Translations under genes and position numbers: made by a program
In this document: positions 2,056 to 59,767 of the stretch, one piece after another
Numbering within the stretch: the stretch's first letter is position 1
Layout of the letters: every line of letters begins with the position of its first letter
The notes under the pieces: generated by a model
The model's database searches: none
What the model saw: the letters and a program-made list of their open reading frames with translations, nothing else
What the model was told of the DNA's origin: nothing
Assembly: GCA_023401925.1 (NCBI GenBank)
Contig: JAEXDA010000029.1
Coordinates: forward strand, 1 to 64,000
DNA: 64,000 nt
Source: Bacillota bacterium
Lineage (GTDB): Bacteria > Bacillota > UBA4882 > UBA8346
Reading direction: 5' to 3'

Positions 2056-2094
2056 TTGCTCAACCTCCTTATATAATAAAGATCATTAACCGGA

Positions 2095-2688
2095 TTACCC
2101 TTTTTTAACCACTAAAATCTGGTCGTTAACAACTTCGGTCACTGTAACCGGTGTGCCGGTGGGTAAGCCGTCTTCCTGGGTCATGGCTTCCATTTCCCGA
2201 ACGGAGCCCTGAATCGTGAGTTGCACTTGTCCCATACCGGACATTTTTCCGGGAATTGGGAGATAGACACGGCCGGGGGCGTTAATGGCGTTGCTCAGAC
2301 GGATATTGCCGCTTTGGGTAAGCTTGGTCATGAAAAAAAGAATTCCCGTTACCGCAAACATTAAGAACGAGCCGACCATAAAAGCAATGAGAACAGTTAC
2401 AATGGGGTTAAAACCGGCGTGAACGGCGAAAATCCCGGCCCATCCGAACCCCGTGAAAAAGATGATGAAGTTACGCAAAGTAAAAAGGCGGAATCCGTCC
2501 ATGGAATCGGCATCGTGATTGACATCAAAACCATCGTGAACATCCAAGTCACTATCATGCCAGTCAATGCCGATCATGGTTAAAATAAGTTGCAACGAAA
2601 AAACAATGGTGAAGGGAATAGCAAAATACCAGAATATTTTTTCGAATGCTGGAATACTGTTCCACCACTGCCCCATTTTGAACGCCAC
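2095..2688 (-). CDS. NfeD-family membrane protein (YuaF-like), the usual flotillin partner
   Basis: 197 aa. Polytopic N-terminal region and a C-terminal soluble beta-rich domain. Operon arrangement with the downstream flotillin mirrors yuaF-yuaG. Confidence 0.65.
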   Translation of the reverse strand: MAFKMGQWWNSIPAFEKIFWYFAIPFTIVFSLQLILTMIGIDWHDSDLDVHDGFDVNHDADSMDGFRLFTLRNFIIFFTGFGWAGIFAVHAGFNPIVTVLIAFMVGSFLMFAVTGILFFMTKLTQSGNIRLSNAINAPGRVYLPIPGKMSGMGQVQLTIQGSVREMEAMTQEDGLPTGTPVTVTEVVNDQILVVKKG

Positions 2689-2831
2689 CTTTCGTATGAT
2701 CCGGTACTAATTTTAATTTCACCATTTTTTATATATTTCCTCCTTTATGAGCTATTTCGGAACCAATGGAAGGAAATGGTCTGGAAAAGGTGAATACTAA
2801 ATCCAAGAAAAATTGGATCTAGGTGATTGTC

Positions 2832-4550
2832 ATGTCGCGCATCATCGGGATTGATGTTGGCGGTACCAACACCAACGCCGCATTACTGGAAGAGGGGCGT
2901 CTTGTTAACACCGCCCAATGCCCCACGAATCATCAGAACTTACTCGATAGTACACGAACCGTTTTAGAGGAAATCCTTCAGGCGAATTCCCAATCCAAAC
3001 CGAAAGATTTAAGCCTTCATCTTAGTACAACCTTAACGACCAATGCCGTCGCGGAAGGGCGGGGTGAACCTGCGGCGGCTATCGTCTCTCCGGGCCCCGG
3101 CGTGAGCCTTGCCGATATGGAGTTTCCATTCCCCGTATATCCTGTGAACGGTTCCATCGATCACCGGGGCCGTGAAACGGCGCCCCTGGAATTGGACCAA
3201 GTACGGCAAGCAATGGGGACAATCGCGGAAAAAGGATTCCGGACCCTGGCGATCATCGGTAAATTTGCGGTTCGTAATCCCCAACACGAATTGGCGATGG
3301 AAAAATTGGCCCGGGCGGAATTTCCCGACATTACCCAGGTGAGCTTGGGACACCGGCTGTCCGGAAGACTTAATTTTCCCCGTCGTGTAACTACGGCGTT
3401 GCTGAATGCCGGCATCGCCCATATTCAGTCGGATTTTGCCGGTATGATTAGGAAACTCGCCCATGATTACGGTATTGACGATCAAGTATCTCTTTTAAAA
3501 GCCGATGGCGGGACGATGAGCCTGGAAGAATCACAGGTCCGCCCGATTGAAACCGTGCTTTCCGGACCGGCCGCCAGTATTATGGGCGCGCTGGCTTTGG
3601 GAGATTTCGGTCATCAAACAACCGTAACCTTGGATATTGGAGGAACCACCACGGAGATTTCCGTTTTGGTGGAAGGAGAACCGCTGGGGGAGCGGGATGG
3701 AGCCATCATCGCCGGATACCGGACTTTAGTGCCCTCTTTGCTCACCCGCTCCTTCGGTTTAGGCGGAGACAGCCGGGTTTATTGGTCGGAACGGAAATTG
3801 CAAATCGGTCCGGAACGGGAAGGTCCGCCGTTTTGCTTGGGAGGGCCGGTTTTAACTCCAACCGACGCAGTGGTGGCTTTGGGTGAAACCTCCTTTGGGG
3901 ACAGGAAAAAAGCCCTTGAGGGACTGGAAGGTTTGGGAAAAGAAGCGGGACTCAATCCGCTGGGCTTAGCCGAAAAGATTATCGGGGAGTTTTGTGATAA
4001 AGCGCTGCATGGAATCGGGGAAGTATTGGATTATCTGAACCGGATACCGGTCTATACCGTGTCCGAAGTGCTGGCGCCCCGTGACTTGAAGCCCGCTAAA
4101 ATTATTGGAATGGGAGGCCCCGCCGGTTATTTCATTCCTAAAATCGCAGCCAAAGTGGGCCTTGACTATCAGGTATTACCCTATGCCGAAGCGGCCAACG
4201 CCATCGGCGCGGCGGCCAGCCGTCCGACTGCGGCCATTCATTTGCGGGCGGATACGGCCTTGGGAAAAGTCGTTATCCCGGAACTGGATGAAATAATGGA
4301 AATTGGAGGGAGTATGCTTTTCGACCGAAAGCAGGCCCGGGCTTTGGCGCTGGAAAAAGCGGCTCTTTATGCCGAAAAGACCGGAGCCTGCCCCGGATGC
4401 CCGGATATCGAAATTACCGATGAAGAAGTGTTTAATGTAGTTCGGGGATTTCATACGACGGGGCGGATCTATTCCCTTACAGCACAGGTTAGACCGGGAG
4501 TTTTTCCGGTTCAAGTTGGAGCCGGAAGAAAGAAGGGATCATCCAAATGA
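2832..4550 (+). CDS. Hydantoinase/oxoprolinase-family (ASKHA-fold) protein
   Basis: N-terminus IIGIDVGGTNTNAALL matches the hydantoinase_A / oxoprolinase GIDVGGTFTD motif. About 570 aa. AGGTGA ribosome-binding site 5 nt upstream of the ATG at 2832; the listed six-frame ORF begins at a GTG at 2823. Confidence 0.65.
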   Translation: MSRIIGIDVGGTNTNAALLEEGRLVNTAQCPTNHQNLLDSTRTVLEEILQANSQSKPKDLSLHLSTTLTTNAVAEGRGEPAAAIVSPGPGVSLADMEFPFPVYPVNGSIDHRGRETAPLELDQVRQAMGTIAEKGFRTLAIIGKFAVRNPQHELAMEKLARAEFPDITQVSLGHRLSGRLNFPRRVTTALLNAGIAHIQSDFAGMIRKLAHDYGIDDQVSLLKADGGTMSLEESQVRPIETVLSGPAASIMGALALGDFGHQTTVTLDIGGTTTEISVLVEGEPLGERDGAIIAGYRTLVPSLLTRSFGLGGDSRVYWSERKLQIGPEREGPPFCLGGPVLTPTDAVVALGETSFGDRKKALEGLEGLGKEAGLNPLGLAEKIIGEFCDKALHGIGEVLDYLNRIPVYTVSEVLAPRDLKPAKIIGMGGPAGYFIPKIAAKVGLDYQVLPYAEAANAIGAAASRPTAAIHLRADTALGKVVIPELDEIMEIGGSMLFDRKQARALALEKAALYAEKTGACPGCPDIEITDEEVFNVVRGFHTTGRIYSLTAQVRPGVFPVQVGAGRKKGSSK

Positions 4551-5875
4551 GAAGCGCCGCTAAACGATTGGGACTGGTTTTTTTCCCCGCTTTCGACTGG
4601 GCCATCAGTGCGGATCATCCGGAACGGGAAGAACGGTTGCTTTATACCCGGGATCAGATCCTGGAAGAAGGTTTACTGGACATCCCCGGGCTGGTGGAAT
4701 ATAATCCGGGAGTCGCCGGGGAACAGGATATCCAGCGGGCCCACATCTGTATTCCCGATGTGAAAACGGTTGTCACCAAGTCCCATCGGGTGGCTGCCGG
4801 AGGCACTATTACGGCAGCTGAAAAAGTCATGAAACATGAAGTGGAACGCGCTTTTGCATTGCTGCGACCCCCCGGGCACCATTCCCACCGGTTGGTTCAT
4901 GGTTCCCGCGGTTTTTGCGCCATTAATAACGAAGCCATTATGATTGAACATTTACGGCATGTTTACGACAGTCATTTGAAAATCGCTATTGTCGACACGG
5001 ATGCCCATCATGCCGACGGTAGCCAGGATATTTATTACAATGACCCGGATGTGTTACATATCTGCATGCATCAGGATGGGCGCACCCTCTATCCCGGAAC
5101 CGGCGATGTGAGCGAACTGGGAGGGCCGGGGGCCTATGGATTGACGCTCAATGTCCCCTTGCCGCCGGAAAGCGGCGACAGTGAGATTTTGTACGTACTG
5201 GAACATTTGGTTTTGCCGGTGCTGGAGGATTTTAGACCGGACATCGTGATCAATGCCGCCGGACAGGATAATCATTATACGGACCCCTTAACCAATATGA
5301 ACGTAACCGCCCAAGGCTATGCCAGGCTGACGGAATTGCTCCAGCCGGATATCGTGGTTTTGGAAGGCGGTTATTCCATTGAAGGAGCCTTGCCATATGT
5401 CAATGCCGGATTAATCCTGGCTTTGGCGGGTCTCGACTATTCGGCGGTCCGGGAACCCCATGCCCAGCCTGGGGAGGCCCCAAAGGAAGTGAAGGAAGCG
5501 GTCCGGAGGACGGTGGGCTTTTTGCAGGAGGTGTGGCACAAACGCGGTGAGCTGGATTTGGACAGGATCTTTGGCTCAGGACCGGTTTTCAAACGCCAGC
5601 GGCGCATCTATTACGATACCGATGAGATCACGGAAGAGCAGAAGGAAGAAATCCGGCGTTGCCCTGATTGCAGCGGTTACCGGGTCATTATTTCCGCTGC
5701 CGACAAATATCACCGTAAGGGAAACCGGATTGGAGCCGTGTTAATCCCGTGGCATGCCTGCGACCAATGCCGCAAGGAAGCCGAAGAGGCTTTTGAACGG
5801 CTGAGATCCCAAAAGGAATTGGAATATGTGTATTTACAGGATGTAGAGGGAGATCGTTATTGGGTCAATAGTTGA
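4547..5875 (+). CDS. Histone-deacetylase-superfamily (AcuC/AphA-like) amidohydrolase with a C-terminal CxxC...CxxC zinc ribbon
   Basis: IVDTDAHHADGSQDIYY...HICMHQD and LEGGYS motifs match the HDAC Zn/active-site signature. C-terminal CPDCSGYR...CDQCRKE. Start overlaps the upstream stop (ATGA). Confidence 0.75.
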   Translation: MRSAAKRLGLVFFPAFDWAISADHPEREERLLYTRDQILEEGLLDIPGLVEYNPGVAGEQDIQRAHICIPDVKTVVTKSHRVAAGGTITAAEKVMKHEVERAFALLRPPGHHSHRLVHGSRGFCAINNEAIMIEHLRHVYDSHLKIAIVDTDAHHADGSQDIYYNDPDVLHICMHQDGRTLYPGTGDVSELGGPGAYGLTLNVPLPPESGDSEILYVLEHLVLPVLEDFRPDIVINAAGQDNHYTDPLTNMNVTAQGYARLTELLQPDIVVLEGGYSIEGALPYVNAGLILALAGLDYSAVREPHAQPGEAPKEVKEAVRRTVGFLQEVWHKRGELDLDRIFGSGPVFKRQRRIYYDTDEITEEQKEEIRRCPDCSGYRVIISAADKYHRKGNRIGAVLIPWHACDQCRKEAEEAFERLRSQKELEYVYLQDVEGDRYWVNS

Positions 5876-5904
5876 AATCATCAATGTCGGCTCGATTGGC
5901 GAAG

Positions 5905-6300
5905 AACGACCTCTCCCCGGCCCCAATGTCATCAAGGGATAATTCCATATTTTGTAAGGATTCCAATTGCCTATTTTGACCTCACCCCGCCCTCTCCGGC
6001 AATGCAACTCAGAGAAGCAAATTCACGGCGAGGGATGTTAGAGCAGTAAACTTGGGCCTTTTTAAAAGCCAAAAATTTGAAGCCTAAAAGATTGGCACGA
6101 ATTTCATTCGATACACCTCTCCCCGTCGAATAGCCGTCATTGAAACCGCGCGCGACTTCGCCGGGGAGAGGCCGGGTGAGAGGTCGGCATTTAGATCCGA
6201 GAGTTTTGGGAAGTTTCTCCATGATAGCCGGATGACATTGACCCCGGCCCTCTCCTAACGAAATCATTTCAAAAGAAGCGGTTTCAAGGAGAGGGATGAC
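5905..6300. repeat. Cluster of at least 6 short GC-rich repeats (core ~CCTCTCCCCGGCC / GGCCGGGGAGAGG) in both orientations within a ~600 bp noncoding gap
   Basis: Motifs read at ~5918, ~5980, ~6115, ~6165-6195 (inverted, doubled), ~6238 and ~6285. No convincing ORF on either strand. Confidence 0.45.
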
Positions 6301-13924: not shown

Positions 13925-14090
13925 CAATAAAAAAGCACTTACCCCGAAATAGGCAAGTGCTTGATCAAATACAATAAAGTAAATGATTTGCTTCCCTACG
14001 ACAGTGTTAACCGACAGGTTCAAGGGGTCAGGTTTTAACCTTCTCAACTCAAACGCGTTCGCGTACGTTGCGAACGCGAGTTCCCCCGCA
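13925..14090 (-). ncRNA. TPP riboswitch, promoter-proximal copy B (~95% identical to copy A, 200 bp register), with its own terminator hairpin
   Basis: Second copy of the ~104 nt aptamer at 13987-14090. Hairpin AGCACUUGCCUAUUUCGGGGUAAGUGCU plus UUUUUUAUU at 13928-13962. Confidence 0.8.
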
Positions 14091-14105
14091 AATTTAAATT
14101 AATCC

Positions 14106-40989: not shown

Positions 40990-41955
40990 GTGGAAAAAGT
41001 ATACTTGGGAGTCGATGTCGGCTCGGTGAGTACCAATATCGTCGGTATTGATGAACAGGAGTCGGTAATTTTTTCTAAATATTTAAGGAATGACGGGCAA
41101 CCCCTTGAGGTCATTCAAGATGGCTTGAAAAAGATTGATCATGAATTCGTGAATTTAAAAGTGATGGGAGTCGGCACTACTGGGAGCGGTAGGTTACTCG
41201 CCGGAACAATGCTTGGAGCCGATATCATCAAGAATGAAATCACCGCCCATGCTTATGCAGCAGTTCATTTCCATCCTGAGGTGCAAGCCATTATTGAAAT
41301 TGGCGGTCAGGACTCCAAATTAATTATCATAACCCATGGTGTAGTCAGCGATTTTTCTATGAATACCGTCTGTGCGGCCGGTACCGGTTCGTTTCTTGAT
41401 CATCAAGCGGAAAGACTCAAAGTCCCGATTGAGGACTTTGGCGATCTCGCTTTATCAGCCCGGAAACGGGTACGTATCGCCGGAAGGTGTACGGTATTCG
41501 CTGAATCCGACATGATTGCCAAGCAGCAATTCGGTTTTTCCAAGGCCGAGATTATCAATGGCTTATGTGATGCATTGGTTCGTAATTATCTTAACAATTT
41601 AGGCCGGGATAAATCAATCCTTGCTCCGGTTTTGTTTCAGGGTGGTGTTGCCGCCAACAAGGGGATCAAGGCTGCTTTTGAGAGGGAATTGCACATTCCG
41701 GTGATTGTACCAAGATATTTCAACGTAATGGGTGCAATTGGCGCTGCGCTGCTGGCTCGGAAACAATTGCGGAAAACTGGTTGCGATACCGGGTTTAGGG
41801 GATTTGAACAGTTGTTGCTTGACTTCGCTCCCACTTCATTTGAATGTGAGGGTTGCAGCAATTGCTGCGAAGTCATTCAGGTTGAACAGGAGCAGCGGAT
41901 TATCGCCATCTGGGGCGATAAATGCGGCAAATACAGCAACCGGATTTCAGCTTAA
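40990..41955 (+). CDS. CoA-substrate-specific enzyme activase (HgdC/BcrAD/YjiL-like ASKHA ATPase, [4Fe-4S] electron donor) with an unusual Cys-rich C-terminal tail
   Basis: LGVDVGSVSTN...GTTGSGR...CAAGTGSF ASKHA motifs. C-terminus FECEGCSNCCEV...GDKCGKY. GTG start. Confidence 0.7.
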   Translation: MEKVYLGVDVGSVSTNIVGIDEQESVIFSKYLRNDGQPLEVIQDGLKKIDHEFVNLKVMGVGTTGSGRLLAGTMLGADIIKNEITAHAYAAVHFHPEVQAIIEIGGQDSKLIIITHGVVSDFSMNTVCAAGTGSFLDHQAERLKVPIEDFGDLALSARKRVRIAGRCTVFAESDMIAKQQFGFSKAEIINGLCDALVRNYLNNLGRDKSILAPVLFQGGVAANKGIKAAFERELHIPVIVPRYFNVMGAIGAALLARKQLRKTGCDTGFRGFEQLLLDFAPTSFECEGCSNCCEVIQVEQEQRIIAIWGDKCGKYSNRISA

Positions 41956-44825: not shown

Positions 44826-45623
44826 TTATTTTTCAGCAACCGGTTCCTCTTTCAATAGATCCTGGATAACTTCCCCCGCGATGATCAATCCCGCAATCGG
44901 AGGAAGATAGGACATACTCCCGGGGATCTTTCGCCGTTTGGTGCAGTTCCAGCCCGGGTCCTCATCATCACGGTGGGGGCAGATGCATCCGCCGTGACAA
45001 GTGACTACCCCTTCTTTGGACTCCACCGGAACTTCCGTAGAATAGACCACTTTGACTCCGCTTTCAATCCCTTTTTCCCGCAAGGCTTTGCGAACCGATT
45101 TGGCCAGCGGACAGGTATGGGTTTTACTGATATCGTCAACCCGGAAGGACAAAGGATCGAACTTATTGCCTGTCCCCATGGAGGAAATCACCGGGATAGC
45201 GTTTTCTTTACAGTAACGGATTAAATCCACCTTGGACCAGACGGTGTCGATGGCGTCAACCACATAAGAAATTCTGCCGTGCAAGATGACATCAATATTT
45301 CGGGCATCTAAAAATTCTTTCCAGGATACCACGACAGCCTCCGGATTGATGGCCTTAACCCTTTCAGCCATGACTTCGACTTTGGGACGGCCGTAGGTTC
45401 CTTCAATGGCATGAATTTGCCGGTTGGTATTGGTCAAACAGATTTCATCGAAATCCACTAAAATGAGCCAGCCAACCCCAGCCCTGGCTAAAGCTTCAAC
45501 CGTATAAGCTCCAACACCTCCCAGACCAATTACAGCGACCCGGGCGCTGTTTAACTTGGCCAAACCTTCGCTGCCAATTAATAATTCGGTTCTACTAAAC
45601 CGGTGTTGGGCCAGTTCACTCAT
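44826..45623 (-). CDS. tcdA: tRNA threonylcarbamoyladenosine dehydratase (ThiF/MoeB/HesA-family E1-like)
   Basis: VIGLGGVGAYTVEALARAGVGWLILVDFD nucleotide-binding motif plus a Cys-rich C-terminal extension, as in TcdA/CsdL. Confidence 0.75.
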   Translation of the reverse strand: MSELAQHRFSRTELLIGSEGLAKLNSARVAVIGLGGVGAYTVEALARAGVGWLILVDFDEICLTNTNRQIHAIEGTYGRPKVEVMAERVKAINPEAVVVSWKEFLDARNIDVILHGRISYVVDAIDTVWSKVDLIRYCKENAIPVISSMGTGNKFDPLSFRVDDISKTHTCPLAKSVRKALREKGIESGVKVVYSTEVPVESKEGVVTCHGGCICPHRDDEDPGWNCTKRRKIPGSMSYLPPIAGLIIAGEVIQDLLKEEPVAEK

Positions 45624-45860: not shown

Positions 45861-47159
45861 TTATTTCTGCGAAATCGCTAATGCTTCATCAAGGGCTTCG
45901 ATGATATCATCCGGATGCTCGAGCCCGATGGATAACCGGATGAGGTCGGGTGTGAGTCCGCCTTCACGCTGCTGTTCCTCGCTCAATTGGGAATGGGATG
46001 TGGAGGACGGATGCAAAATTAAGCTCTTGGCATCGCCTACGTTGGCCAGATTCGAGAACAACGTGATATTGTCAATCAGTTTTACCGCCGCTTCATAGCC
46101 GCCTTTCACTCCAAAGACCACCATGCCGCCGAAACCATTTTGCAAGTATTTCTTAGCGACCGGATAGGTTGGGTCGTCGGGAAGACCGGGGTAACGTACC
46201 CAAGCCACTCGCGGGTCCTTTTTCAAAAATTCGGCAACTTTCAAGGCGTTATCGGAATGTTTTTCCATACGTACCGGCAATGTTTCAATACCTTGCGTAA
46301 AGATCCAGGCATTATCGGGGGAAAGTGTGGCCCCAAGGTTACGAAGAGGTACGGTACGGAAACGCAATGCGTAAGAAATCGGAGAGAGCGCTTCCGGAAG
46401 ATCATAGGCCCACTTTAAACCGTGATAATTGGGATCAGGCTGGGTCATTAAAGGGAACTTATCGTTCTTCCAGTTAAATTTGCCGGAATCGGTGATAATT
46501 CCTCCAATAGCGGAACCATGGCCTCCAAGCCATTTGGTGAGAGAATTGATGACGATATCGGCGCCATAATCGATAGCTCTCAGCAGGTAGGGAGTCGTAA
46601 ATGTACCGTCAACGATTAAGGGAATATTATGAGCATGGGCAATCTTGGCAACTTCGCCGACATCGGTAAAATCAAGCGCGGGATTGCCGATGGTTTCAAT
46701 ATATAGCAGTTTGGTTTTCGGAGTGATGGCTTTTTCAAAGTTTTGGGGATCTTTGGCATCGACAAACTTGGTGATAATGCCGAATTGGGGTAAGATAGCG
46801 TCAAACATCGTATAGGTCCCGCCATAGAGATTGTTGGCGGAAACGATTTCGTCCCCTTGTCCCGCAATCGTAATGATGGCATAGTGGATTGCGCTGGTAC
46901 CCGATGCAACGGATACTGAAGCGGCCCCACCCTCGAGTGCGGAGACACGGTCTTCAAGAACTGCATTGGTGGGATTACCGAGCCGGCTGTATATAAAGCC
47001 AAGTTCTTTCAAACCAAAGAGATTGGCGCCGTGTTCGGTATTTTTGAATACAAAGGAACTGGTGCGATGAACGGAAATGCCCCGCGATAAAGTGGTAGGA
47101 TCGGGAACCTGCCCCGCGTGAATGGAAAGTGTTTCAAACCGGTAATTGTTTTTGGCCAT
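45861..47159 (-). CDS. metY: O-acetylhomoserine aminocarboxypropyltransferase (PLP-dependent, Cys/Met metabolism family), paralog 1
   Basis: ETLSIHAGQ...YSRLGNPT...PLP-lysine region. 432 aa. Confidence 0.85.
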   Translation of the reverse strand: MAKNNYRFETLSIHAGQVPDPTTLSRGISVHRTSSFVFKNTEHGANLFGLKELGFIYSRLGNPTNAVLEDRVSALEGGAASVSVASGTSAIHYAIITIAGQGDEIVSANNLYGGTYTMFDAILPQFGIITKFVDAKDPQNFEKAITPKTKLLYIETIGNPALDFTDVGEVAKIAHAHNIPLIVDGTFTTPYLLRAIDYGADIVINSLTKWLGGHGSAIGGIITDSGKFNWKNDKFPLMTQPDPNYHGLKWAYDLPEALSPISYALRFRTVPLRNLGATLSPDNAWIFTQGIETLPVRMEKHSDNALKVAEFLKKDPRVAWVRYPGLPDDPTYPVAKKYLQNGFGGMVVFGVKGGYEAAVKLIDNITLFSNLANVGDAKSLILHPSSTSHSQLSEEQQREGGLTPDLIRLSIGLEHPDDIIEALDEALAISQK

Positions 47160-47323
47160 TGCAATTCTCCTTTATAAATATTTTTTTGAAAAACCAAAAT
47201 GTATCCGTCAGTTCTTACTCCGGTTTTGAGCCCCTTTTGAATGGTCTTTGGGTCATCCGGAATCACCAACAAAAAAATAAAATAAAACCTATATGTTTAG
47301 TAGGGAAATTAAATTATAAAAAT

Positions 47324-47351
47324 TATATCTTACTGATCCAATGATTGTCAA
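47324..47351 (-). promoter_or_regulatory. Candidate sigma-A promoter for metY (TTGACA-16-TATAAT) with a ~165 nt leader of unassigned structure
   Basis: Minus strand reads TTGACAatcattggatcagtaagaTATAAT. Confidence 0.35.
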
Positions 47352-47645
47352 CAAGAAAATTTCCCAATCGAAAACTACTTGGATTCCGGTATTCAATGAG
47401 GCTGTTAAATCCCTCACTAAGTAGTGAAATCGGGATAAAGGCCTTTCATTAAAATTATTGGATAAAGTATCACGCACTTCGAACCCGGCATACATTAAAA
47501 AAGATGTAGGAAATTCATACCGATCGGAACCGGTAGGAGTTTCCTAAAACTTAATCAAACCCCGGCCCAAAAAATGAAGCGTCGATCCGGATAGAGCCGA
47601 GGCTATTTTCTAAGTCTAGTTTGATAATGAAAGGGGTAGCAATAG

Positions 47646-48425
47646 ATGATCACCGAATTAAATATTCTGCCGGGTTTCAATAAATCCGGGATCCAGGAAG
47701 ATTTTGAGGAGCTTACACTGAAGGCGGGGGAGACCATATCGATAGTGGGCCCGACCGGAAGCGGCAAAACTGCTTTTATTACCGATATAGAATTACTGGC
47801 GCAAGGGGATACATCCACCAAACGACATATTTTGCTCAACCGGGAAGTGCCCGAGGACAGTATCCGTTATAATCCGGCTTTGAAACCGATTGCCATGATC
47901 ACTCAAAATACCAAATGCTTTGCGGATTTAGCGACTGAGGAGTTTCTGCAAATCCATGCCCGGGCCCGTTGTATTCAAAGTAAAACCATCATTGAGGAAA
48001 CCATTGAATTGGCTAATATTTTCACCGGTGAAAAAATTCAAAAGAATAATAAAGTCACGACCCTTTCCGGCGGTCAAACCCGTTCCCTGTTAATCGCCGA
48101 TGCTATTTTGATAGGGGCGGCGCCTATTGTATTATTGGATGAGATTGAGAACGCCGGCATTTTTAAACAGGAAGTATTGGAGATCATCCACGGGGCCGGG
48201 AAAATTATTATTTTTGTGACCCATGATCCGGTGATCGCCTTACATACTGAGAAAAGGGTGATTATGGAAAATGGCGGCGTCAAAAAGGTCCTTCAGCAAA
48301 ATGAGTTAGAAATATATGCCGCCCGGAATCTGGTTGAACTTGATAAAAGAGTGGGAGCCATTCGAGAGGAGTTACGAGCGGGCCATATTATTACGAGGGA
48401 ACTGGCCAATTTAAATTTTGCCTAA
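47646..48425 (+). CDS. Stand-alone ABC-type ATPase with no adjacent permease; atypical Walker B (LLDEIENAG)
   Basis: Walker A GPTGSGKT, Q-loop, LSGGQ signature, D-E Walker B, H-loop THD. 259 aa. Confidence 0.75.
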   Translation: MITELNILPGFNKSGIQEDFEELTLKAGETISIVGPTGSGKTAFITDIELLAQGDTSTKRHILLNREVPEDSIRYNPALKPIAMITQNTKCFADLATEEFLQIHARARCIQSKTIIEETIELANIFTGEKIQKNNKVTTLSGGQTRSLLIADAILIGAAPIVLLDEIENAGIFKQEVLEIIHGAGKIIIFVTHDPVIALHTEKRVIMENGGVKKVLQQNELEIYAARNLVELDKRVGAIREELRAGHIITRELANLNFA

Positions 48426-48448
48426 AAGGTACGAAGGAGTTGTAAAAA

Positions 48449-49159
48449 TTGAAGTTAGCGATTATAGCCGGACCACCGTCTGCCGGAAAAACTGCCCTTA
48501 TTAAACAAATTGTGGGCAATCTTCGAGATTCGATGCGGATTGTTTTTCTAAAAATTGATGTGGTAAAAGCTTATGAAGATATTGAACTTGAAATGGAATT
48601 CGGGATTCTGACCAAAAAGATTTATTCGGGGGATTTGTGTCCGGATCATGCCGGAGTGATGGTTCTTGGGGATGCGATTGAGTGGGCCTTCGCCAACAAG
48701 GCCGATTTGTTTATCGTTGAAAGCGCCGGTTTATGCTTGCGTTGTTCGCCGTACTTGAACCAGGGACTGGGGATTGTGGTCTTAAGTTCCATTTCGGGAA
48801 TTCATACCCCGGAAAAGATGGGGGCGATGGTGAGCTTGGCCGATGTGGCGGTCGTAACCAAAATTGATTTGGTAAGTCAGGCCGAACGGGAGGTGTTGAT
48901 TCAAAAAATCAAGGAGATTCACCCCGCTGTGATCTTACTGGAAACAAACGCTCTTCAGGGCACGTCCTTGCAGCGGCTCTATGAGCTCATTCGTAATTCG
49001 GGTGACATTTCCGAAGATAATTTATACTTGAAAGGGAATCCGCCGCTCGGTACTTGTACTATCTGTGTTGGCAAGAAAGATATCGGGTGGCGCAAACACT
49101 TTGGAGTTGTCAAGAAATTGGAAGGCAATATCGCCGACTATTTATATCGGGGTGAATGA
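48449..49159 (+). CDS. G3E-family P-loop GTPase (HypB/UreG/CobW-like metallochaperone fold)
   Basis: G1 GPPSAGKT; switch motif VESAGLCLRCSP (compare ENVGNLVCP in HypB and ESGG in UreG); G4-like TKID; CPDH motif. Confidence 0.55.
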   Translation: MKLAIIAGPPSAGKTALIKQIVGNLRDSMRIVFLKIDVVKAYEDIELEMEFGILTKKIYSGDLCPDHAGVMVLGDAIEWAFANKADLFIVESAGLCLRCSPYLNQGLGIVVLSSISGIHTPEKMGAMVSLADVAVVTKIDLVSQAEREVLIQKIKEIHPAVILLETNALQGTSLQRLYELIRNSGDISEDNLYLKGNPPLGTCTICVGKKDIGWRKHFGVVKKLEGNIADYLYRGE

Positions 49160-49160
49160 A

Positions 49161-49811
49161 ATGACCATTGCAAAACTGTGGCATCCACCGGGCAAAAATT
49201 GCGGTTTATGCGGGGATGAGTCATGCCGGGATTTTTTACGGGCGGTTATTAATGAACAAAAAAGTTATAGCGACTGCCCTTATTATCAAGAACAGTCCCT
49301 GGCGGCGGAAGGACAGATGCGGGAAGCGATTTATACCGACTTGGATGTCCTAGGCCATCCTTATGATTTTGTTTTGAGCCCAATACCGGGGGAGATCTCG
49401 GCCCGGAAAATTGTATTGCCTTTCCGGGGCGACCTGGTAGAAAAGATGGAAATTGTAAAGGGTGATTATGTCATGGGCCGCCCCATGGGAGCCGGATGCC
49501 CGATTCCCCATGTTTTGGAAGTGATTGAAGCTGATCCCCTTACCGGCCTGCTTACAACATGGGTGGTAGGACCTAGAGTGTCCCGGGAAAAACCGGTCAA
49601 AGATGTCAAGGCCTATCATATGATAGGTTTTGACGGCCTGGCTGAACATGTCCGAAGAAAACCAGCGGTGGGATATAGGATGTCCTTTCTGCCAGGCTGC
49701 TGTATGATGAATTTGAACCATACCGGCCTGGTTAACATGGTGCTTGAAAAAAGTTACGGCACCCAAATCCGGGTGGAAGACATCAGGATACTGGCCGGAC
49801 CTGAGGGGTAA
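49161..49811 (+). CDS. Cys-motif protein of unknown function (CGLCGDESC-x16-C, GCPIPH, PGCC)
   Basis: ATG 1 nt after the preceding stop. 7 Cys including a CxxCx4C cluster near the N-terminus. No recognisable family. Confidence 0.45.
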   Translation: MTIAKLWHPPGKNCGLCGDESCRDFLRAVINEQKSYSDCPYYQEQSLAAEGQMREAIYTDLDVLGHPYDFVLSPIPGEISARKIVLPFRGDLVEKMEIVKGDYVMGRPMGAGCPIPHVLEVIEADPLTGLLTTWVVGPRVSREKPVKDVKAYHMIGFDGLAEHVRRKPAVGYRMSFLPGCCMMNLNHTGLVNMVLEKSYGTQIRVEDIRILAGPEG

Positions 49812-49942
49812 TGGGTCTGTTTATATTTCACCTTTGAAATTTTAATGAAAGAGGCTCTCGCAAAAGGAAATACGCCCCGGGCACGCCCGAAAAAGCGCGT
49901 ACACGCGACGTATTTCTCAGTGAACAGCCTTTAAAATTTTCA

Positions 49943-50518
49943 TTAAAATTGATATCCTAGTTTGACGGAACCCTCGTACATCAGATCCGGAAGTTTTAGA
50001 TTGCCGGAACCAACCGTGACGTTTTCGTCGCTCAGGTTGTAATGAAAGGCAGCCCAAGGATTGATATACCAGTGATCGCTAAGTTTATATACATACCCGC
50101 AACCGAGGGTGAGGATTTTCTGAGAAAACTTGCCGCCAACACCGGTATTTTTGTTTTGAATCCGGCTGTCCCAAAATTCGACGCCTCCTGCCAGCCACAA
50201 ACCCTCCCGGTTTTCGTCCGGGAAATAATCCACAATCACCGCATTGACATCCAAATCCCAATCCTTGTAGCCCTTTGGAGTTACAAAACCAGGGATGGTG
50301 GTTTTGGTCCGAATCAGCCGGAGATTATAGTGGTCAAATCCTATCACTCCGCTGATGTAATGTCCTCCGGAAAGATAAGGCAGCGCATCAACTTCTATTC
50401 CAAAGGTAAGTCCGGGATCGCTTTGAGAAGCGGCAAGGGTTGTCATAGATAACCCCAGTGTCAGCAAGATTCCCAGGATGCAAATTCCCCAAACTTTCTG
50501 TGTTTGATTTTTAAACAT
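49943..50518 (-). CDS. Small outer-membrane beta-barrel protein (signal peptide, alternating amphipathic strands, C-terminal ...GYQF)
   Basis: Signal peptide ending AAS. Terminal Phe is the classic BAM-recognition signature. Confidence 0.5.
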   Translation of the reverse strand: MFKNQTQKVWGICILGILLTLGLSMTTLAASQSDPGLTFGIEVDALPYLSGGHYISGVIGFDHYNLRLIRTKTTIPGFVTPKGYKDWDLDVNAVIVDYFPDENREGLWLAGGVEFWDSRIQNKNTGVGGKFSQKILTLGCGYVYKLSDHWYINPWAAFHYNLSDENVTVGSGNLKLPDLMYEGSVKLGYQF

Positions 50519-54754: not shown

Positions 54755-54950
54755 AGCGCTCTTATCCGGAGAGGGGAAGGGACTGGCCCGATGAACCCTC
54801 GGCAACTGAAAGCGGTTTGACAATTTGAAAGTCCGCCTCACAGTGCCAATTCCTGCAGGGGAAACCCGAGAGATGAGAGGAAAATGGAAAATTATAGCCG
54901 AGCTATCGCTTGGTTATAGAAACCTCTTCCTCGTGGAAGAGGTTTTTTTA
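54755..54950 (+). ncRNA. SAM-I (S-box) riboswitch with intrinsic terminator, in the metA leader
   Basis: GCUCUUAUCCGGAGAGGGGAAGGGACUGGCCCGAUGAACCCUCGGCAAC...GGUGCCAAUUCCUGCAGGGGAAACCCGAGAGAUGAGAGG matches the S-box consensus. Terminator GAAACCUCUUCC-UCGU-GGAAGAGGUUUUUUUAUUUU at 54918-54950. Confidence 0.9.
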
Positions 54951-54996
54951 TTTTAATTTCAACCTGAACCATGAAGCAAAATTAGGAGGAGATAAC

Positions 54997-55914
54997 ATGC
55001 CGATTCGAATACCAAACAATCTACCAGCCACAGAGATTTTGGGCCGGGAAAATATCTTTGTAATGACAGAAGACCGGGCTCGCCATCAGGACATCCGCCC
55101 GTTAAAGATAGCGATTCTTAATTTGATGCCGACCAAAATCACCACAGAAACCCAGTTGTTACGATTGCTTGGGAATACTCCGCTCCAAGTGGAGGCGATT
55201 TTGCTTCAGCCCAAAAACCACCAGGCCAAGAACACGCCGGAAGAACATTTGAAGACTTTTTATAAAACCGTTGATGAGGTCGCTCATGAAAACTTTGATG
55301 GCTTGGTAATCACAGGAGCGCCGGTGGAGCAATTGGATTTCGAGGAAGTTGATTATTGGAAGGAACTGACTGAAATTTTGGATTGGGCCGATCACCATGT
55401 TTACTCAACCTTTTATATCTGTTGGGCGGCTCAAGCCGGACTTTTCTATCATTATAAGATTCCCAAGTATCCCTTATCCCAAAAAAAGTTTGGTGTCTTT
55501 GAACATACCGTCAATCAAAAATATACCAAATTATTGCGGGGGTTTGATGATGTTTTCCTGGCGCCTCATTCCCGTCATACCGAGGTGCGGCAGGCCGATA
55601 TCGAAAAAGTCCCTGGACTTGAGATTTTATCGACTTCTAAGGAAGCCGGGGTTTATATCGTAGTTTCCAACGATGAACGGAGGGTGTTTGTGACCGGACA
55701 TTCGGAATACGATCCGTTAACTCTAAAAGCCGAGTACGACCGGGATATTGCCAGAGGCATGCAGATTGATGTCCCGCGAAATTATTATCCCAACGATGAC
55801 CCCGGTAAGGAACCGATTGTAAAATGGCGGAGCCACGCTCATTTGCTTTATTTTAACTGGTTAAATTACTATGTATATCAAGGTACTCCTTATGACTTAA
55901 ATGACATCCGTTAA
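54997..55914 (+). CDS. metA: Homoserine O-acyltransferase (MetA family)
   Basis: [11 protein letters not shown]...[10 protein letters not shown] is the canonical MetA N-terminus. GGAGGAG ribosome-binding site before the ATG at 54997. Confidence 0.85.
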
Positions 55915-56062
55915 GAATTGGGTTTGTATTGGATCTTTTATAAAAATCATTTCGAAATGTATGTAACTTTTTAAATCCTTTTCGTTATGCAAAGTGATTT
56001 TAAACAGAGGCTGCTTCCCATTTTCGGGAAGCAGTTTGCATTGAGAGGGAACTTTGCCAATA

Positions 56063-56090
56063 TTGACAAAGCTTTCTTTTGGATATAATA
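56063..56090 (+). promoter_or_regulatory. Consensus-like sigma-A promoter (TTGACA-16-TATAAT) upstream of cysK, preceded by a terminator hairpin (56009-56039) for metA
   Basis: TTGACAaagctttcttttggaTATAAT. Hairpin GGCTGCTTCCC-ATTTTC-GGGAAGCAG followed by TTTGC. Confidence 0.5.
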
Positions 56091-56159
56091 TCAAAATAAA
56101 ATAAGATGGACCAAGCTACGATCGATGGATGGAATTCTTTTTGCGGAGGTTTATGTTGA

Positions 56160-57095
56160 ATGTCCAAAATTGCCCAAAGTTTAACGGATTTAATCGGTAA
56201 CACTCCTTTACTGGAGCTTAGTAATTTTAACAAATTTCATGGACTCAGCGCCAGAGTAATTGCGAAACTGGAATATTTCAATCCCCTCGGTAGTGTAAAA
56301 GACCGGGTCGGTTTTGCAATGATTCAAGACGCCGAAGCAAAGGGCCTGATCAACAAGGATACGGTCATCATCGAGCCGACCAGCGGTAATACCGGCGTCG
56401 CTTTGGCTTTTGTCGCCGCATCCCGGGGCTACCGGTTGATTTTAACGATGCCGGATAGCTTCAGTATTGAACGGCGCAACCTGTTAAAAGCTCTGGGGGC
56501 TGAATTGGTCCTTACTCCAGGAGTTGAGGGAATGTCGGGCGCAGTGCGCAGAGCGAATGAATTGGCCGCTCAAAATCCCAATTCGTTTATTCCCGGGCAG
56601 TTTAAAAATCCGGCAAACCCGGAGATGCACCGGAGAACGACTGCCGAGGAAATCTGGCGCGATACCGACGGAAAAGTGGATATTTTTATTGCCGGCGTCG
56701 GTACCGGGGGTACCGTCAGCGGTGTTGGGGAAGGTCTGAAAAAGAAAAATCCCAAGATACAAATCATCGCTTTTGAACCTTTTGATTCTTCTGTTTTATC
56801 CGGAGGGCGGCCAGGGCCCCATAAACTTCAAGGCATTGGCGCGGGATTTGTACCCGAGGTTTTCAATCGCTCTATCGTTGATGAAATTGTTACTGTGAAG
56901 AGTGAAGATGCCTTTGCAACTGCCAGGCGGCTTGCAAAACAGGAAGGCTTATTGGTGGGCATAACATCAGGCGCAGCTGTATTCGTAGGAACTGAGGTTG
57001 CCAAACGTCCGGAAAATAAGGGAAAGACGATTGTGGTATTGTTGCCGGATACCGGGGAACGTTATTTATCGACTCCTTTATTCCAGGAAAGTTAA
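56160..57095 (+). CDS. cysK: Cysteine synthase A (O-acetylserine sulfhydrylase)
   Basis: IGNTPLL...NPLGSVKDR...[11 protein letters not shown]-fold type II motifs. 311 aa. Confidence 0.9.
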
Positions 57096-57124
57096 TTCGA
57101 GAAAGTGAATAATAATTTGTTTAA

Positions 57125-57165
57125 AAACAAAACGATAACGCATCTCTTCGTTATCGTTTTGTTAT
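57125..57165 (+). terminator. Intrinsic terminator after cysK
   Basis: AACGATAACG-catctctt-CGTTATCGTT followed by TTGTT. Confidence 0.55.
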
Positions 57166-57481
57166 AGGATTGGGATTTTAATTGGGAGAATCCGGTGCCA
57201 TGGCGGACTTTCAGATTCGTTTGAAAAGATGCTTTGCACTTAAATGAAAAACGGGCTATCCTATTGCTTTTCACACACTGGGAGTGTGAATTCTCAAATT
57301 CATTTTGGAAATTTCATTTTCAACCGATTGATTCATCTACGGACTCCTTGGCAGAAGGGCTGTCAAAGATGTAATGTAGAAATAGTTTCTGAGAAAGTTC
57401 AATGACGGAATACCCTGTGATTTGAATAAATTAACGCCATTTTTCAAGATTTTCGAAGCAGTAACTTTGGAGGTTTGACTT

Positions 57482-58135
57482 ATGAGTTTCAGCGGTATCG
57501 TTTTCGATTTTAACGGCACTTTGTTTTGGGACACTCCCTTGCATAATCAGGCCTGGGATATTTTCATGCAGGAGCACAACCTGGAGCAGCTTACCGACGC
57601 CGAAAAGAATCAGAAAATGCATGGCAAGGCCAATCATGAGATCCTGCCGGTGCTGTTTCATAAAGAATTATCTCCTGCAGAGCTTGAAGGTTTCATTCAT
57701 AAAAAAGAAACCATCTACCAAGAACTTTGTTTGCAGCAGAAAATGGAATTAGCGCCGGGGGTCTTGCCGCTGCTCGATTTTTTAAAAGAGCGCCGAAAAG
57801 CTTTTACGATCGCCACCTCGTCCGGCATCGGTAACTTACGGTTTTATTTTGAACATTTTCATTTAAGCCGGTGGTTTGATTTTGAGCAGATTGTGTATGA
57901 TGATGGTTCACTCAAGAGTAAACCGGATCCGCAGATTTTTGAGGCGGCTATGGCTAAAATAGGAAAAGGCCCCAAAGATGTGGTTATATTTGAGGATTCA
58001 TTCGCCGGAATTTTAGCTGCTCAGAGAGCCCATCCAGGGAAGATAATTATCGTTGATTCGGTTCATGAAGATTATAGCAAGTGGAATTATCAGGTTATCA
58101 GGAGTTTTGTCGAGGTTGATAAGGAAATGTTTTGA
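57482..58135 (+). CDS. HAD-IA family hydrolase
   Basis: FDFNGTLFWDT motif I and downstream HAD motifs. Confidence 0.7.
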   Translation: MSFSGIVFDFNGTLFWDTPLHNQAWDIFMQEHNLEQLTDAEKNQKMHGKANHEILPVLFHKELSPAELEGFIHKKETIYQELCLQQKMELAPGVLPLLDFLKERRKAFTIATSSGIGNLRFYFEHFHLSRWFDFEQIVYDDGSLKSKPDPQIFEAAMAKIGKGPKDVVIFEDSFAGILAAQRAHPGKIIIVDSVHEDYSKWNYQVIRSFVEVDKEMF

Positions 58136-58492
58136 AAAACCGTGTATTGAGAATAAATGTAGGAGATGGAACATTTGCTGGTGGAAGCCGTCAATTTGGA
58201 CCTGGATTTCTGCTGGGTCGCCTGGTTCCGACAAGATGATATCCGCCCCATTTTCAACATTCCTCGGGATAAATCGGGGTAGGAATCATTACCGGTTGGT
58301 TATGCAGATGAAAATCCAAACCCGCGGCCCAGAAAAAGCTTGAGGATATTCTTCATTATGAACATTGGTGAGGACGTCCACAACTGATATGGAGTGGGAA
58401 AAAAGTATTGATTATTTCTTTGTGACAGTCTATGATTATTTTAAATTCAGAGACGTATCTAATCATTGAAAGGGAGAAAAGAGGAAAATTCG

Positions 58493-59767
58493 ATGTCGAT
58501 GTCTGCATGGAGAATAGAAACCAAATGCCTCCAGGAGGGATACAAGCCTGGAAATGGTGAGCCGCGGGTACTTCCGATTTATCAAAGCACTACTTACAAA
58601 TATAACTCAACGGAACAGGTTGCCAAGTTATTTGACTTGACCGAACCGGGCCATATGTATAGCCGTATCAGCAATCCTACCGTGGCATGTCTTGAAAACA
58701 AGATTGCCGCCCTGGAGGGTGGCGTAGGTGCCCTTTGTACATCATCCGGACAGTCGGCTACCTTAAATGCCCTGCTGAACATTGGCGAATGCGGGGACCA
58801 TTTCGTATCCTCCAGCACCATTTATGGCGGGACCTATAACCTGCTGGCCATTACCATCAAAAGGATGGGGATCGAGGTTACCTTTGTCAATCCGGATAGT
58901 TCCGAGGAGGAGATTCAGAAGGCATTCCGTCCGAACACCAAGGCTCTCTTTGGAGAAACCATCGCCAATCCGAAAATCAACGTCCTTGATATCGAGAAAT
59001 TCGCGCGCATAGCCGGAAAAAATCAGGTTCCGCTGATTGTGGACAACACGTTCGCCACTCCGGTTCTTTGCCGGCCTTTTGAATGGGGCGCGGATATCGT
59101 GATTCATTCTACCACCAAATATATGGATGGACATGCCACCTGTATCGGCGGCGCGATCGTAGATTCCGGAAAATTCGATTGGACAAACGGCAAATATCCC
59201 TTGCTGACTACGGCCGATGCATCGTATCATGGGGTTGTTTATACCAAAGATTTCGGAGCTGCGGCCTATATCACCAAAGCCCGGGTCCAATATATGCGGG
59301 ATATTGGTAACTGTATGAGCCCCAATAATGCCTTTCTGACTAATTTAGGTTTGGAAACGTTACATATTCGAATTGAACGCCATTCGGAGAATGCTTTAAA
59401 AGTAGCCCGGTATTTAGAAGATAGTAATAAAATCATATCCGTCAGTTATCCCGGATTGGCTGAGGACCCCTACCATCGTCTGGCTGAAAAATATTTGCCG
59501 AAAGGATGCAGCGGGGTGATTTCATTCCGGATCAAGGGCGGTAGGGAAGGTGCGGTGAAATTTATGGATAGGTTGAAGATGGCCGCCATCGTGGTTCATG
59601 TGGCGGATGCCAGGACCAGTGTGCTCCACCCGGCCAGTTCCACCCACCGTCAAATGAACGACGAACAACTTTTACAAGCCGGAATTGAGCCGGATTTGAT
59701 CCGTTTTTCGGTGGGCCTCGAACATGTTGACGACATCCTCGAAGATATTGAACAGGCTTTGGAGTAA
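58493..59767 (+). CDS. metY: O-acetylhomoserine aminocarboxypropyltransferase, paralog 2
   Basis: Same family as 45861-47159 (LPIYQSTTY...YSRISNPT...). Ribosome-binding site AAGGGAGAAAAGAGG before the ATG at 58493. Confidence 0.85.
   Translation: MSMSAWRIETKCLQEGYKPGNGEPRVLPIYQSTTYKYNSTEQVAKLFDLTEPGHMYSRISNPTVACLENKIAALEGGVGALCTSSGQSATLNALLNIGECGDHFVSSSTIYGGTYNLLAITIKRMGIEVTFVNPDSSEEEIQKAFRPNTKALFGETIANPKINVLDIEKFARIAGKNQVPLIVDNTFATPVLCRPFEWGADIVIHSTTKYMDGHATCIGGAIVDSGKFDWTNGKYPLLTTADASYHGVVYTKDFGAAAYITKARVQYMRDIGNCMSPNNAFLTNLGLETLHIRIERHSENALKVARYLEDSNKIISVSYPGLAEDPYHRLAEKYLPKGCSGVISFRIKGGREGAVKFMDRLKMAAIVVHVADARTSVLHPASSTHRQMNDEQLLQAGIEPDLIRFSVGLEHVDDILEDIEQALE

Follow-up and report, generated by a model that had tools for sequence, protein, structure and literature searches.

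A conserved operon of an ABC-type ATPase, a HypB-like GTPase and an Fe-S protein in Firmicutes and methanogens, with a possible role in sulfite supply for sulfonate synthesis

The locus described here raises the question of what an ATP-binding cassette (ABC) ATPase, a G3E-family GTPase and a small cysteine-motif protein do together. Their three adjacent genes lie in a stretch of 64,000 nucleotides from a Bacillota bacterium (contig JAEXDA010000029.1, positions 1 to 64,000), called the window below. An earlier note on this DNA regarded them as a candidate system for metallocentre maturation or insertion. Homology identifies the trio as the bacterial version of a conserved cassette of an ATPase, a HypB-like GTPase and a COG2000 iron-sulfur (Fe-S) protein, the COG2000 label of gene 3 being taken from PMC12068725. 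The genes that accompany the cassette make it probable that the trio is functionally tied to sulfonate or sulfur metabolism. It is a reasonable possibility that strict anaerobes living on sulfide obtain through the trio the sulfite, or an enzyme-bound equivalent of it, that sulfonate synthesis consumes. More tentatively, the trio may be an undescribed metallo-redox enzyme, driven by nucleoside triphosphates (NTPs), that converts reduced sulfur to sulfite or to a sulfonyl equivalent bound to a protein. This would be the missing first step for coenzyme M (CoM) in methanogens and for endospore sulfolactate in anaerobic Firmicutes.

The three-gene operon is real and is conserved far beyond chance. 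The longest open reading frame of gene 3 opens at a GTG at 49065, and homologues place its true start at the ATG at 49161. The intergenic gaps are therefore 23 nt and 1 nt, so that the open reading frame map and the homologue starts bear out the tight same-strand packing described in the earlier note. The TTG start of gene 2 agrees with the N-terminus of the archaeal homologues. All of the motifs quoted in that note are found in the translations (GPTGSGKT, LSGGQ, LLDEIENAG and THD in gene 1; GPPSAGKT, CPDH, ESAGLCLRCSP and TKID in gene 2; CGLCGDESC...C, GCPIPH and PGCC in gene 3). The note had proposed a comparison of gene neighbourhoods across genomes, and here the result is clear: the trio is adjacent and co-oriented in 74 of 82 genome loci, with contig ends explaining most of the exceptions, and the same order is found in 58 of the 58 archaeal-type metagenome loci that have enough upstream DNA. 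In bacteria and archaea alike, order and adjacency are invariant and the gaps are 0-100 nt, even where protein 3 is no more than 30% identical; the member at 30% identity is on a 6-Mb bacterial contig and still has the three genes in the same order. Among the genome-locus orthologues, the ABC ATPase has a median identity of 72%, and the GTPase one of 79%, to its counterpart in the window. One archaeal set is 54%, 64% and 55% identical to the products of genes 1, 2 and 3, with every motif kept. All-against-all clustering of the open reading frames of 85 loci revealed no further gene conserved beside the trio, only antisense shadow reading frames and lineage-specific synteny.

The cassette is found in anaerobic Firmicutes and in methanogens. 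A scan of one genome per species found 194 relatives of protein 3, and the best 80 of the 194 were analysed. These include Peptococcia and Desulfotomaculales (Pelotomaculum, Thermincola), Heliobacteria, Dethiobacteria and Hydrogenispora, as well as the archaea Methanofollis, Methanogenium and one uncultured archaeon. In all three of the archaeal genome loci the trio lies within a CoM operon (Table 1). A metagenome scan with an archaeal-type alignment added 80 further loci. CoM genes are present in 47 of the 57 archaeal-type loci with at least 2.5 kb of downstream DNA, and each of these 47 has cysteate synthase or ComA. The commonest order is the trio followed by Mmp16 (ComF), cysteate synthase and ComDE. 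This association has been mentioned previously, for archaea only and without a function: according to the legend of Fig 2B of Chadwick et al. 2025, PLoS Genet (PMC12068725), an ATPase, a Ni-binding GTPase and a COG2000 Fe-S protein are often near CoM genes and their role is unknown. No other paper in the searched literature mentions COG2000 in the context of CoM. Some archaeal-type trios (L160, and also L162, L163, L167 and L169) are without CoM genes; their flanking genes, listed for L160 in Table 1, form a further sulfur-trafficking neighbourhood.

In some Firmicutes the trio is associated with phosphosulfolactate synthase. A search with archaeal CoM proteins detected ComA in 14 Firmicute loci, no more than 10 kb away from the trio; the ComA of L018, for example, scores 347.7 bits against a cut-off of 280. 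In ten of these loci ComA, in some cases ComB, the ABC ATPase, the GTPase and the Fe-S protein are contiguous on one strand, and in the other four an MFS-ComA gene pair lies 5-7 kb downstream of the trio. An MFS gene upstream of ComA is seen in several Desulfotomaculales, and its product may be a sulfolactate or sulfite transporter. At L019 a gerA/gerB/gerC-type germinant receptor operon (1926-6128, minus strand) is divergent from the ComA-ComB-trio operon, which adds a sporulation context. ComA itself is widespread in Desulfotomaculales. The sulfate reducers Desulforamulus reducens and Desulfofarcimen acetoxidans have an MFS-ComA pair and no trio nearby, and in Pelotomaculum terephthalicicum JT ComA and the trio are on separate contigs. 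Among the matches listed, the named isolates with the trio (Pelotomaculum, Heliobacteria, Phosphitispora and Hydrogenispora) are not sulfate reducers.

The gene that most often follows the cassette in archaea suggests a different function, and this is the strongest rival explanation. The trio may serve the COG1900 enzymes that convert aldehydes to thiols, namely Mmp16/ComF and the L-aspartate semialdehyde sulfurtransferase that forms homocysteine, by providing activated sulfur, low-potential electrons, or metal or Fe-S maturation. Mmp16 starts -6 to +21 nt past the Fe-S gene in 46 of 57 archaeal-type loci. It is the main CoM synthase, ComF, and is named a metalloprotein whose sulfur donor and reductant are undefined (PMC12068725). 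The window trio is near genes for homocysteine and cysteine synthesis, and the activation complex of methyl-coenzyme M reductase (PMC12176620) is a precedent for an ABC-type ATPase that takes part with Fe-S proteins in a reduction driven by ATP. However, no homologue of Mmp16 or COG1900 was found in about 80 Firmicute loci or in the window, and ComDE and cysteate synthase were likewise found in no bacterial locus. ComA and ComB are the only such genes that accompany the trio in Firmicute operons, and their pathway has no thiolation step. At two archaeal-type loci (L081 and L164) cysteate synthase and ComDE are present beside the trio and an adjacent Mmp16 is absent. Service to COG1900 enzymes is thus considered unlikely, though it deserves more weight than any other rival.

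Many Firmicute operons appear, by match to a consensus, to carry a mother-cell promoter of the sigma-K/sigma-E type. The consensus for these sigma factors is AC at -35, a spacer of about 15-17 nt and CATAnnnTA at -10. Alignment of the upstream regions revealed a recurrent G-AC...CATAnnnTA element 37-51 nt ahead of the ABC start codon. For strict scoring, AC-N15-18-CATAnnnTA had to lie in the 200 nt that precede the leading gene of each operon. This motif is found in 40 of 73 Firmicute operons (36 distinct sequences) and in 1.1% of 13,804 background windows, and shuffled upstream regions gave a mean of 1.7 and a maximum of 7. It is in none of the 60 archaeal-type upstream regions, which are AT-rich. 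Because the loci are related by descent, the binomial P value of this enrichment overstates their independence; even so, the strict motif recurs with differing flanking sequence in several families. In operons that begin with ComA, an element gCAC-N17-CATATCATA is found upstream of ComA and is absent ahead of the ABC gene. The architecture and spacing of the motif agree with those of the mother-cell promoters in PMC517825. A variant of the sigma-K/E-like type, GGkAAC-N17-AATACTAT, precedes ComA in L018 and L087.

The window has a matching element with a longer leader. In the window and its closest relatives (L005 and L006) the -10 element is about 150 to 155 nt from the start codon, versus 37-51 nt in most lineages (compare L004, L014, L050 and others). 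The additional 110 nt or so of the window leader hold a possible hairpin, CCGATCGGAACCGGTAGG. A riboswitch or leader RNA ahead of the operon was considered and rejected, as an Rfam scan of the whole window at gathering thresholds gave no match there, and neither did one of 47100-47700 at E <= 1. A sigma-70 promoter for the trio was also rejected: the counts from the scan were not above those of shuffled sequence, and the lone perfect site is that of the divergent metY. The weak hairpin and T-rich tail that overlap the stop codon of gene 3 probably mark the end of the operon; the number of terminator-like sites in the region is not above that of shuffled sequence.

Three genomic settings of the trio can be distinguished: the ComA route to CoM, the cysteate synthase route to CoM, and ComA/ComB alone. 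Sulfite is the sole requirement common to all three, and the trio is therefore proposed as a supplier of sulfite. Sulfite is the substrate of ComA (PMC3087415) and also of cysteate synthase. The source of sulfite for CoM in methanogens grown on sulfide is described as unresolved in PMC3448663 and PMC6286981. Dsr-like proteins running in reverse are suggested there as a source, and some methanogens are without them. The consumers of the sulfite would be ComA, for spore sulfolactate in Firmicutes and for CoM in some methanogens, and cysteate synthase, for CoM in other methanogens.

Gene 1 is predicted to encode a catalytically complete single nucleotide-binding domain that is soluble and has no transmembrane partner. 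It matches PF00005 at 57.2 bits (gathering threshold 25). The segments GPTGSGKT, ITQN, LSGGQ, IVLLDE and THD are at least 90% identical in 75 orthologues, most of them at least 98%, and LSGGQ, DEIENAG, THDP and the Q-loop QNTKCF are near-invariant. The complete ABC fold noticed earlier is thus upheld, with Walker A, the Q-loop Gln, LSGGQ, Walker B with its catalytic Glu and the H-loop His all conserved. The earlier note considered the Walker B region LLDEIENAG to be atypical. The peculiarity is in the D-loop, in which the canonical SALD is absent and IENAG is found throughout the family, including the archaeal copies; the Walker B segment LLDE with its catalytic Glu is intact. Gene 1 could in principle be an ordinary importer ATPase with its permease elsewhere, the three genes being neighbours by accident, since the PF00005 match is generic and the nearest PDB and NCBIfam matches are transporter nucleotide-binding domains. 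The invariant order and adjacency described above argue strongly against this, as do the conserved IENAG D-loop and the best NCBIfam scores, which at about 50 bits (transporter families) are far under every transporter cut-off. The earlier note had found no permease or substrate-binding protein gene nearby; this holds within 8-10 kb of the trio across 85 genome loci, where no such gene recurs and no membrane-protein gene does either. The importer explanation is consequently very improbable. No SufC or A2 model is among the best 25 of the 144 NCBIfam families that match gene 1. A role in anti-phage defence was also rejected: PADLOC had no match for gene 3, and those for genes 1 and 2 were generic ABC or P-loop matches.

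Gene 2 is correctly placed in the G3E family. It matches PF02492 (CobW/HypB/UreG) at 43.5 bits (gathering threshold 20.7); the Walker A motif GPPSAGKT is at least 90% conserved and ESAG, the ExxG motif of Walker B, is invariant. CPDH, ESAGLCLRCSP and TKIDL are near-invariant. The position that determines guanine specificity reads TKID, not NKxD, in all 81 orthologues; TKxD is found in GTPases of the signal recognition particle type. The best NCBIfam match, TIGR00073 (HypB), reaches 67.7 bits where the cut-off is 121.2; the best PDB match is HypB of M. jannaschii (2hf8, E 5e-12). The C-x2-H of CPDH and the Cys of LRCSP align with the Cys-His and Cys metal ligands of 2hf8, with a two-residue insertion. 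A C-terminal extension (CTIC..GW..HFG) and the tail YLYRGE (D/NYLYRGE/D) are kept in bacteria and archaea. This tail, which canonical HypB lacks, resembles a docking or metal-binding segment.

Protein 3 combines a known Fe-S domain with what is modelled as an unrecognised beta fold. The earlier note assigned it to no family. This was correct for the C-terminal region of about 170 residues, for which no relative was detected in Pfam or among PDB folds, and incorrect for the N-terminus, which matches PF04060 (40 bits, gathering threshold 23, E 3.2e-10) and is related to the N-terminal parts of RnfB and of the large subunit of the corrinoid/Fe-S protein. All 24 members of a diverse alignment (A2), down to 27% identity, match PF04060; C14, C17 and C22 are invariant in it and C39 is at least 90% conserved. 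The AlphaFold2 model has a mean pLDDT of 80.8. In the C-terminal domain R107-P108, C113-P114-x-x-H117, C181 (C181-M-M) and G189 are kept down to 27% identity, and H187 in most members. The PGCC motif that had been proposed as a ligand is present, but only its second Cys (C181) is conserved. The region of C113, H117, C181 and H187 is a putative second metal or active site, and the several conserved arginines of the protein would suit an anionic ligand. The family is compact: an exhaustive search for protein 3 among 1.84 billion cluster representatives gave no more than 129 clusters at E <= 1e-3. It has hundreds of close relatives of about 215-235 aa with PF04060 as the sole domain, and metagenome-assembled genomes named 'Bacillota bacterium OH_*' have copies about 96-97% identical to that of the window.

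These features keep alive the idea of the earlier note in a general form, in which the trio matures or inserts a metallocentre (Ni, Co, Zn or Fe-S) for a client encoded elsewhere and has no relation to sulfonates. The GTPase retains HypB-type metal ligands, protein 3 has two Cys/His-rich sites, SufC-like soluble ABC ATPases act in cluster assembly, and most bacterial copies of the trio stand alone. What this explanation leaves unaccounted for is the repeated and independently arranged linkage to CoM and sulfolactate genes. It also lacks a client: none recurs beside the trio in 85 loci, a broader form of the earlier observation that the window has no evident client. The note had stated as well that the trio is not a urease, hydrogenase, carbon monoxide dehydrogenase or nitrile hydratase cassette, and the genes for these enzymes, as well as hyp genes, are indeed absent from the neighbourhoods examined. 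Maturation of hydrogenase, urease or carbon monoxide dehydrogenase in particular was rejected on these grounds and on the HypB equivalog cut-off, which gene 2 does not reach. General metallocentre maturation is therefore only partly supported and is judged a minor possibility, a little below service to COG1900 enzymes.

If the trio is a sulfite supplier, a working scheme can be proposed, in which the chemistry and the individual steps are inferred. Protein 3 would be the redox-active working component, with the [4Fe-4S] domain passing electrons to or from the site lined by Cys, His and Arg in the beta domain. The HypB-like GTPase would load or gate a metal at this site, and the ABC ATPase dimer, working as a clamp driven by ATP, would provide the energy for a redox or assembly step that is otherwise unfavourable. 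Expression of the window operon would begin in the mother cell during sporulation. The transfer of six electrons from sulfide (E0' about -116 mV) to carriers at the level of NAD costs about +118 kJ/mol, as computed from textbook potentials. Sulfide to sulfite is uphill by this amount, and a requirement for NTP hydrolysis is therefore plausible. The same residues and the same genomic association with sulfite-using enzymes would also fit a device that handles sulfite near the enzymes of sulfonate synthesis, by sensing, sequestering, channelling or detoxifying it, and is not its source. The conserved Arg, Cys and His residues of protein 3 would be appropriate for binding an oxyanion, and sulfite inhibits methanogenesis (PMC3448663). 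However, such a device would leave the origin of sulfite in sulfide-grown cells unexplained, two NTPases seem excessive for binding or channelling, and dedicated detoxifying reductases (Fsr) already exist. A handling function is accordingly regarded as improbable.

Several points weigh against sulfite supply. The window trio is alone: ComA, ComB, ComC, ComDE, cysteate synthase and Mmp16 were all absent from the 64 kb. Most bacterial trios also stand alone, and co-occurrence of ComA and the trio across a whole genome was shown in P. terephthalicicum JT only. The apparent lack of the trio in sulfate reducers is based on the matches listed. The loci are phylogenetically related, so the locus counts are not independent. 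The position of Mmp16/ComF directly after the Fe-S gene in archaea fits a thiolation role equally well. The promoter is assigned by consensus match, and Heliobacteria are without the motif. To our knowledge none of these protein families has a biochemical precedent for sulfite formation, and it is a bold proposal that a protein of 216 aa carries out a six-electron oxidation.

The neighbourhood theme of the trio is sulfur metabolism throughout. In the window the trio is located between metY and a TcdA/ThiF-like gene on one side and, 5-10 kb away on the other side, an island of sulfur amino-acid genes (Table 1). The metY gene has a leader of about 160 nt (47160-47351, minus strand), for which Rfam gave no match at E <= 1. 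S-box or T-box leaders are usual for methionine genes, and the metY leader may hold an undescribed regulatory element. Elsewhere in the window there is a thiamine pyrophosphate riboswitch (13975-14097, minus strand, 62.7 bits). Downstream of the trio, a gene for a beta-rich protein of 191 aa with a signal peptide (49943-50518, minus strand), a candidate outer-membrane barrel, has no NCBIfam match at E <= 1e-6. It would be notable for a Bacillota genome to encode an outer-membrane protein.

Table 1. Features of the window and of related loci. Locations are window positions unless a locus number is given.
Feature	Location	Strand	Description
Acyl-CoA dehydratase activase-type ATPase (HgdC/BcrAD family)	40990-41955	+	187 bits; upstream of trio
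TcdA/ThiF-like adenylyltransferase	44826-45623	-	Cys-rich C-terminus; upstream of trio
metY	45861-47159	-	Perfect sigma-70 promoter TTGACA-18-TATAAT, 47351 to 47322
Sigma-K/sigma-E-type promoter-like element	47468-47497	+	-35 AC 47472-47473, 15-nt spacer, -10 CATACATTA 47489-47497
Presumed 5' leader	47498-47645	+	About 145 nt; Shine-Dalgarno AAAGGGG ahead of ATG
Gene 1, ABC-type ATPase	47646-48425	+	259 aa, ATG start
Gene 2, HypB-like G3E GTPase	48449-49159	+	236 aa, TTG start
C-terminal tail of GTPase	49010-49159		Compare archaeal L083, 1538-2242
Gene 3, COG2000-type Fe-S protein	49161-49811	+	216 aa, ATG start
PF04060 [4Fe-4S]-type domain of gene 3	49188-49283	+	Residues 10-41; C14, C17, C22, C39
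All-beta C-terminal domain of gene 3	49332-49799	+	Residues ~58-213; predicted from AlphaFold2 model and conservation
Weak terminator-like hairpin and T-rich tail	49796-49829	+	Overlaps gene 3 stop; pattern match
SAM-I riboswitch	54759-54879	+	76.8 bits; precedes metA
metA, homoserine O-acetyltransferase	54910-55914		Behind SAM-I riboswitch
cysK	56160-57095		Followed by HAD hydrolase; sulfur amino-acid island 54910-59767
Second O-acetylhomoserine sulfhydrylase	58466-59767
Archaeal CoM operon	L083		Trio, then Mmp16 (TIGR03287, 507 bits), ComA, ComB, ComC, ComDE
Archaeal CoM operon	L077		Trio, then Mmp16, cysteate synthase (644 bits), ComDE
Archaeal CoM operon	L081		Trio, then cysteate synthase, ComDE
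Flanks of archaeal-type trio	L160 2344-12721		LarE-like sacrificial sulfur transferase, radical SAM protein, DUF2284 metal-binding protein, SsuA-family sulfonate-binding protein
Further flanks of the same trio	L160		ThiF/MoeB enzyme, TauE-like membrane protein, AIR-synthase-like (SelD/HypE/ThiL family) protein
MFS-ComA pairs	L085 5439-7816; L086 5478-7822; L087 5576-7801; L018 8662-10907		MFS gene upstream

The cassette has implications for methanogenesis and for sporulation. CoM is indispensable for biological methane formation, and its sulfonate group needs sulfite. Across two domains of life the cassette accompanies both types of enzyme that consume sulfite, which makes the question of the sulfite source testable, and if the proposal is true it provides a new target for the inhibition of methanogenesis. 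The trio would extend the paradigms of G3E GTPases and soluble ABC proteins past classical metallocentre insertion, and it adds a putative Cys/His site in a beta fold. The findings also suggest that loading of endospores with sulfolactate is widespread in anaerobic Firmicutes, with mother-cell sigma control as in Bacillus subtilis. Relative to the searched literature, the bacterial form, the linkage to ComA/ComB, the sporulation-type promoter, the fold-orphan and putatively catalytic domain and the hypothesis of sulfite supply appear to be new.

Each of the three proteins resembles parts of known systems. Like gene 1, SufC of SufBCD and component A2 of methyl-coenzyme M reductase activation have an ABC domain without a membrane partner and are coupled to an assembly that contains Fe-S proteins (PMC12176620 for A2). 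The window has no SufB/SufD or Mcr-associated partners, and gene 1 encodes a single nucleotide-binding domain with the unique IENAG D-loop. HypB, which works with HypA/SlyD in the GTP-dependent delivery of nickel to [NiFe]-hydrogenase, shares with gene 2 the G3E fold, Walker A, ExxG and the Cys/His...Cys site. Gene 2 differs in having C-x2-H in place of CH, TKID in place of NKxD and an extra C-terminal CxxC...H tail, and there are no hyp or hydrogenase genes nearby. The N-terminal [4Fe-4S] domain of AcsC/CdhE and RnfB shares CxxCx4C...C with protein 3, with a weak but specific match to 4djd_C (E 0.0028), and the likeness is limited to the first 40 residues or so.

The closest functional parallel would be in B. 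subtilis. The products of yitA, yitB and yisZ are paralogues of sulfate adenylyltransferase, 3'-phosphoadenosine 5'-phosphosulfate reductase and adenosine 5'-phosphosulfate kinase, and constitute a dedicated mother-cell supply of sulfite. The late mother-cell operon yitBA-yisZ has been assigned to the same phosphosulfolactate pathway as yitCD (ComB/ComA), which is chiefly controlled by sigma-K from a promoter read by sigma-E and sigma-K, and sulfolactate makes up 5% of the spore dry weight (PMC517825). As with ComA-ComB-trio, homologues of ComA and ComB are thus combined with a three-gene set under control of the sigma-K/sigma-E type. The two sets have no sequence relationship, and the yit set is usable where sulfate is assimilated. 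By this analogy, which is unproven, the trio would be a non-homologous substitute for yitBA-yisZ in strictly anaerobic spore formers. The closest relative by descent is the CoM-linked cassette of methanogens (PMC12068725), which has the same three families in the same order, at the identities to the window proteins given above. The window copy differs from it in being bacterial, in having no CoM genes in its 64 kb and in the sporulation-type promoter that precedes it.

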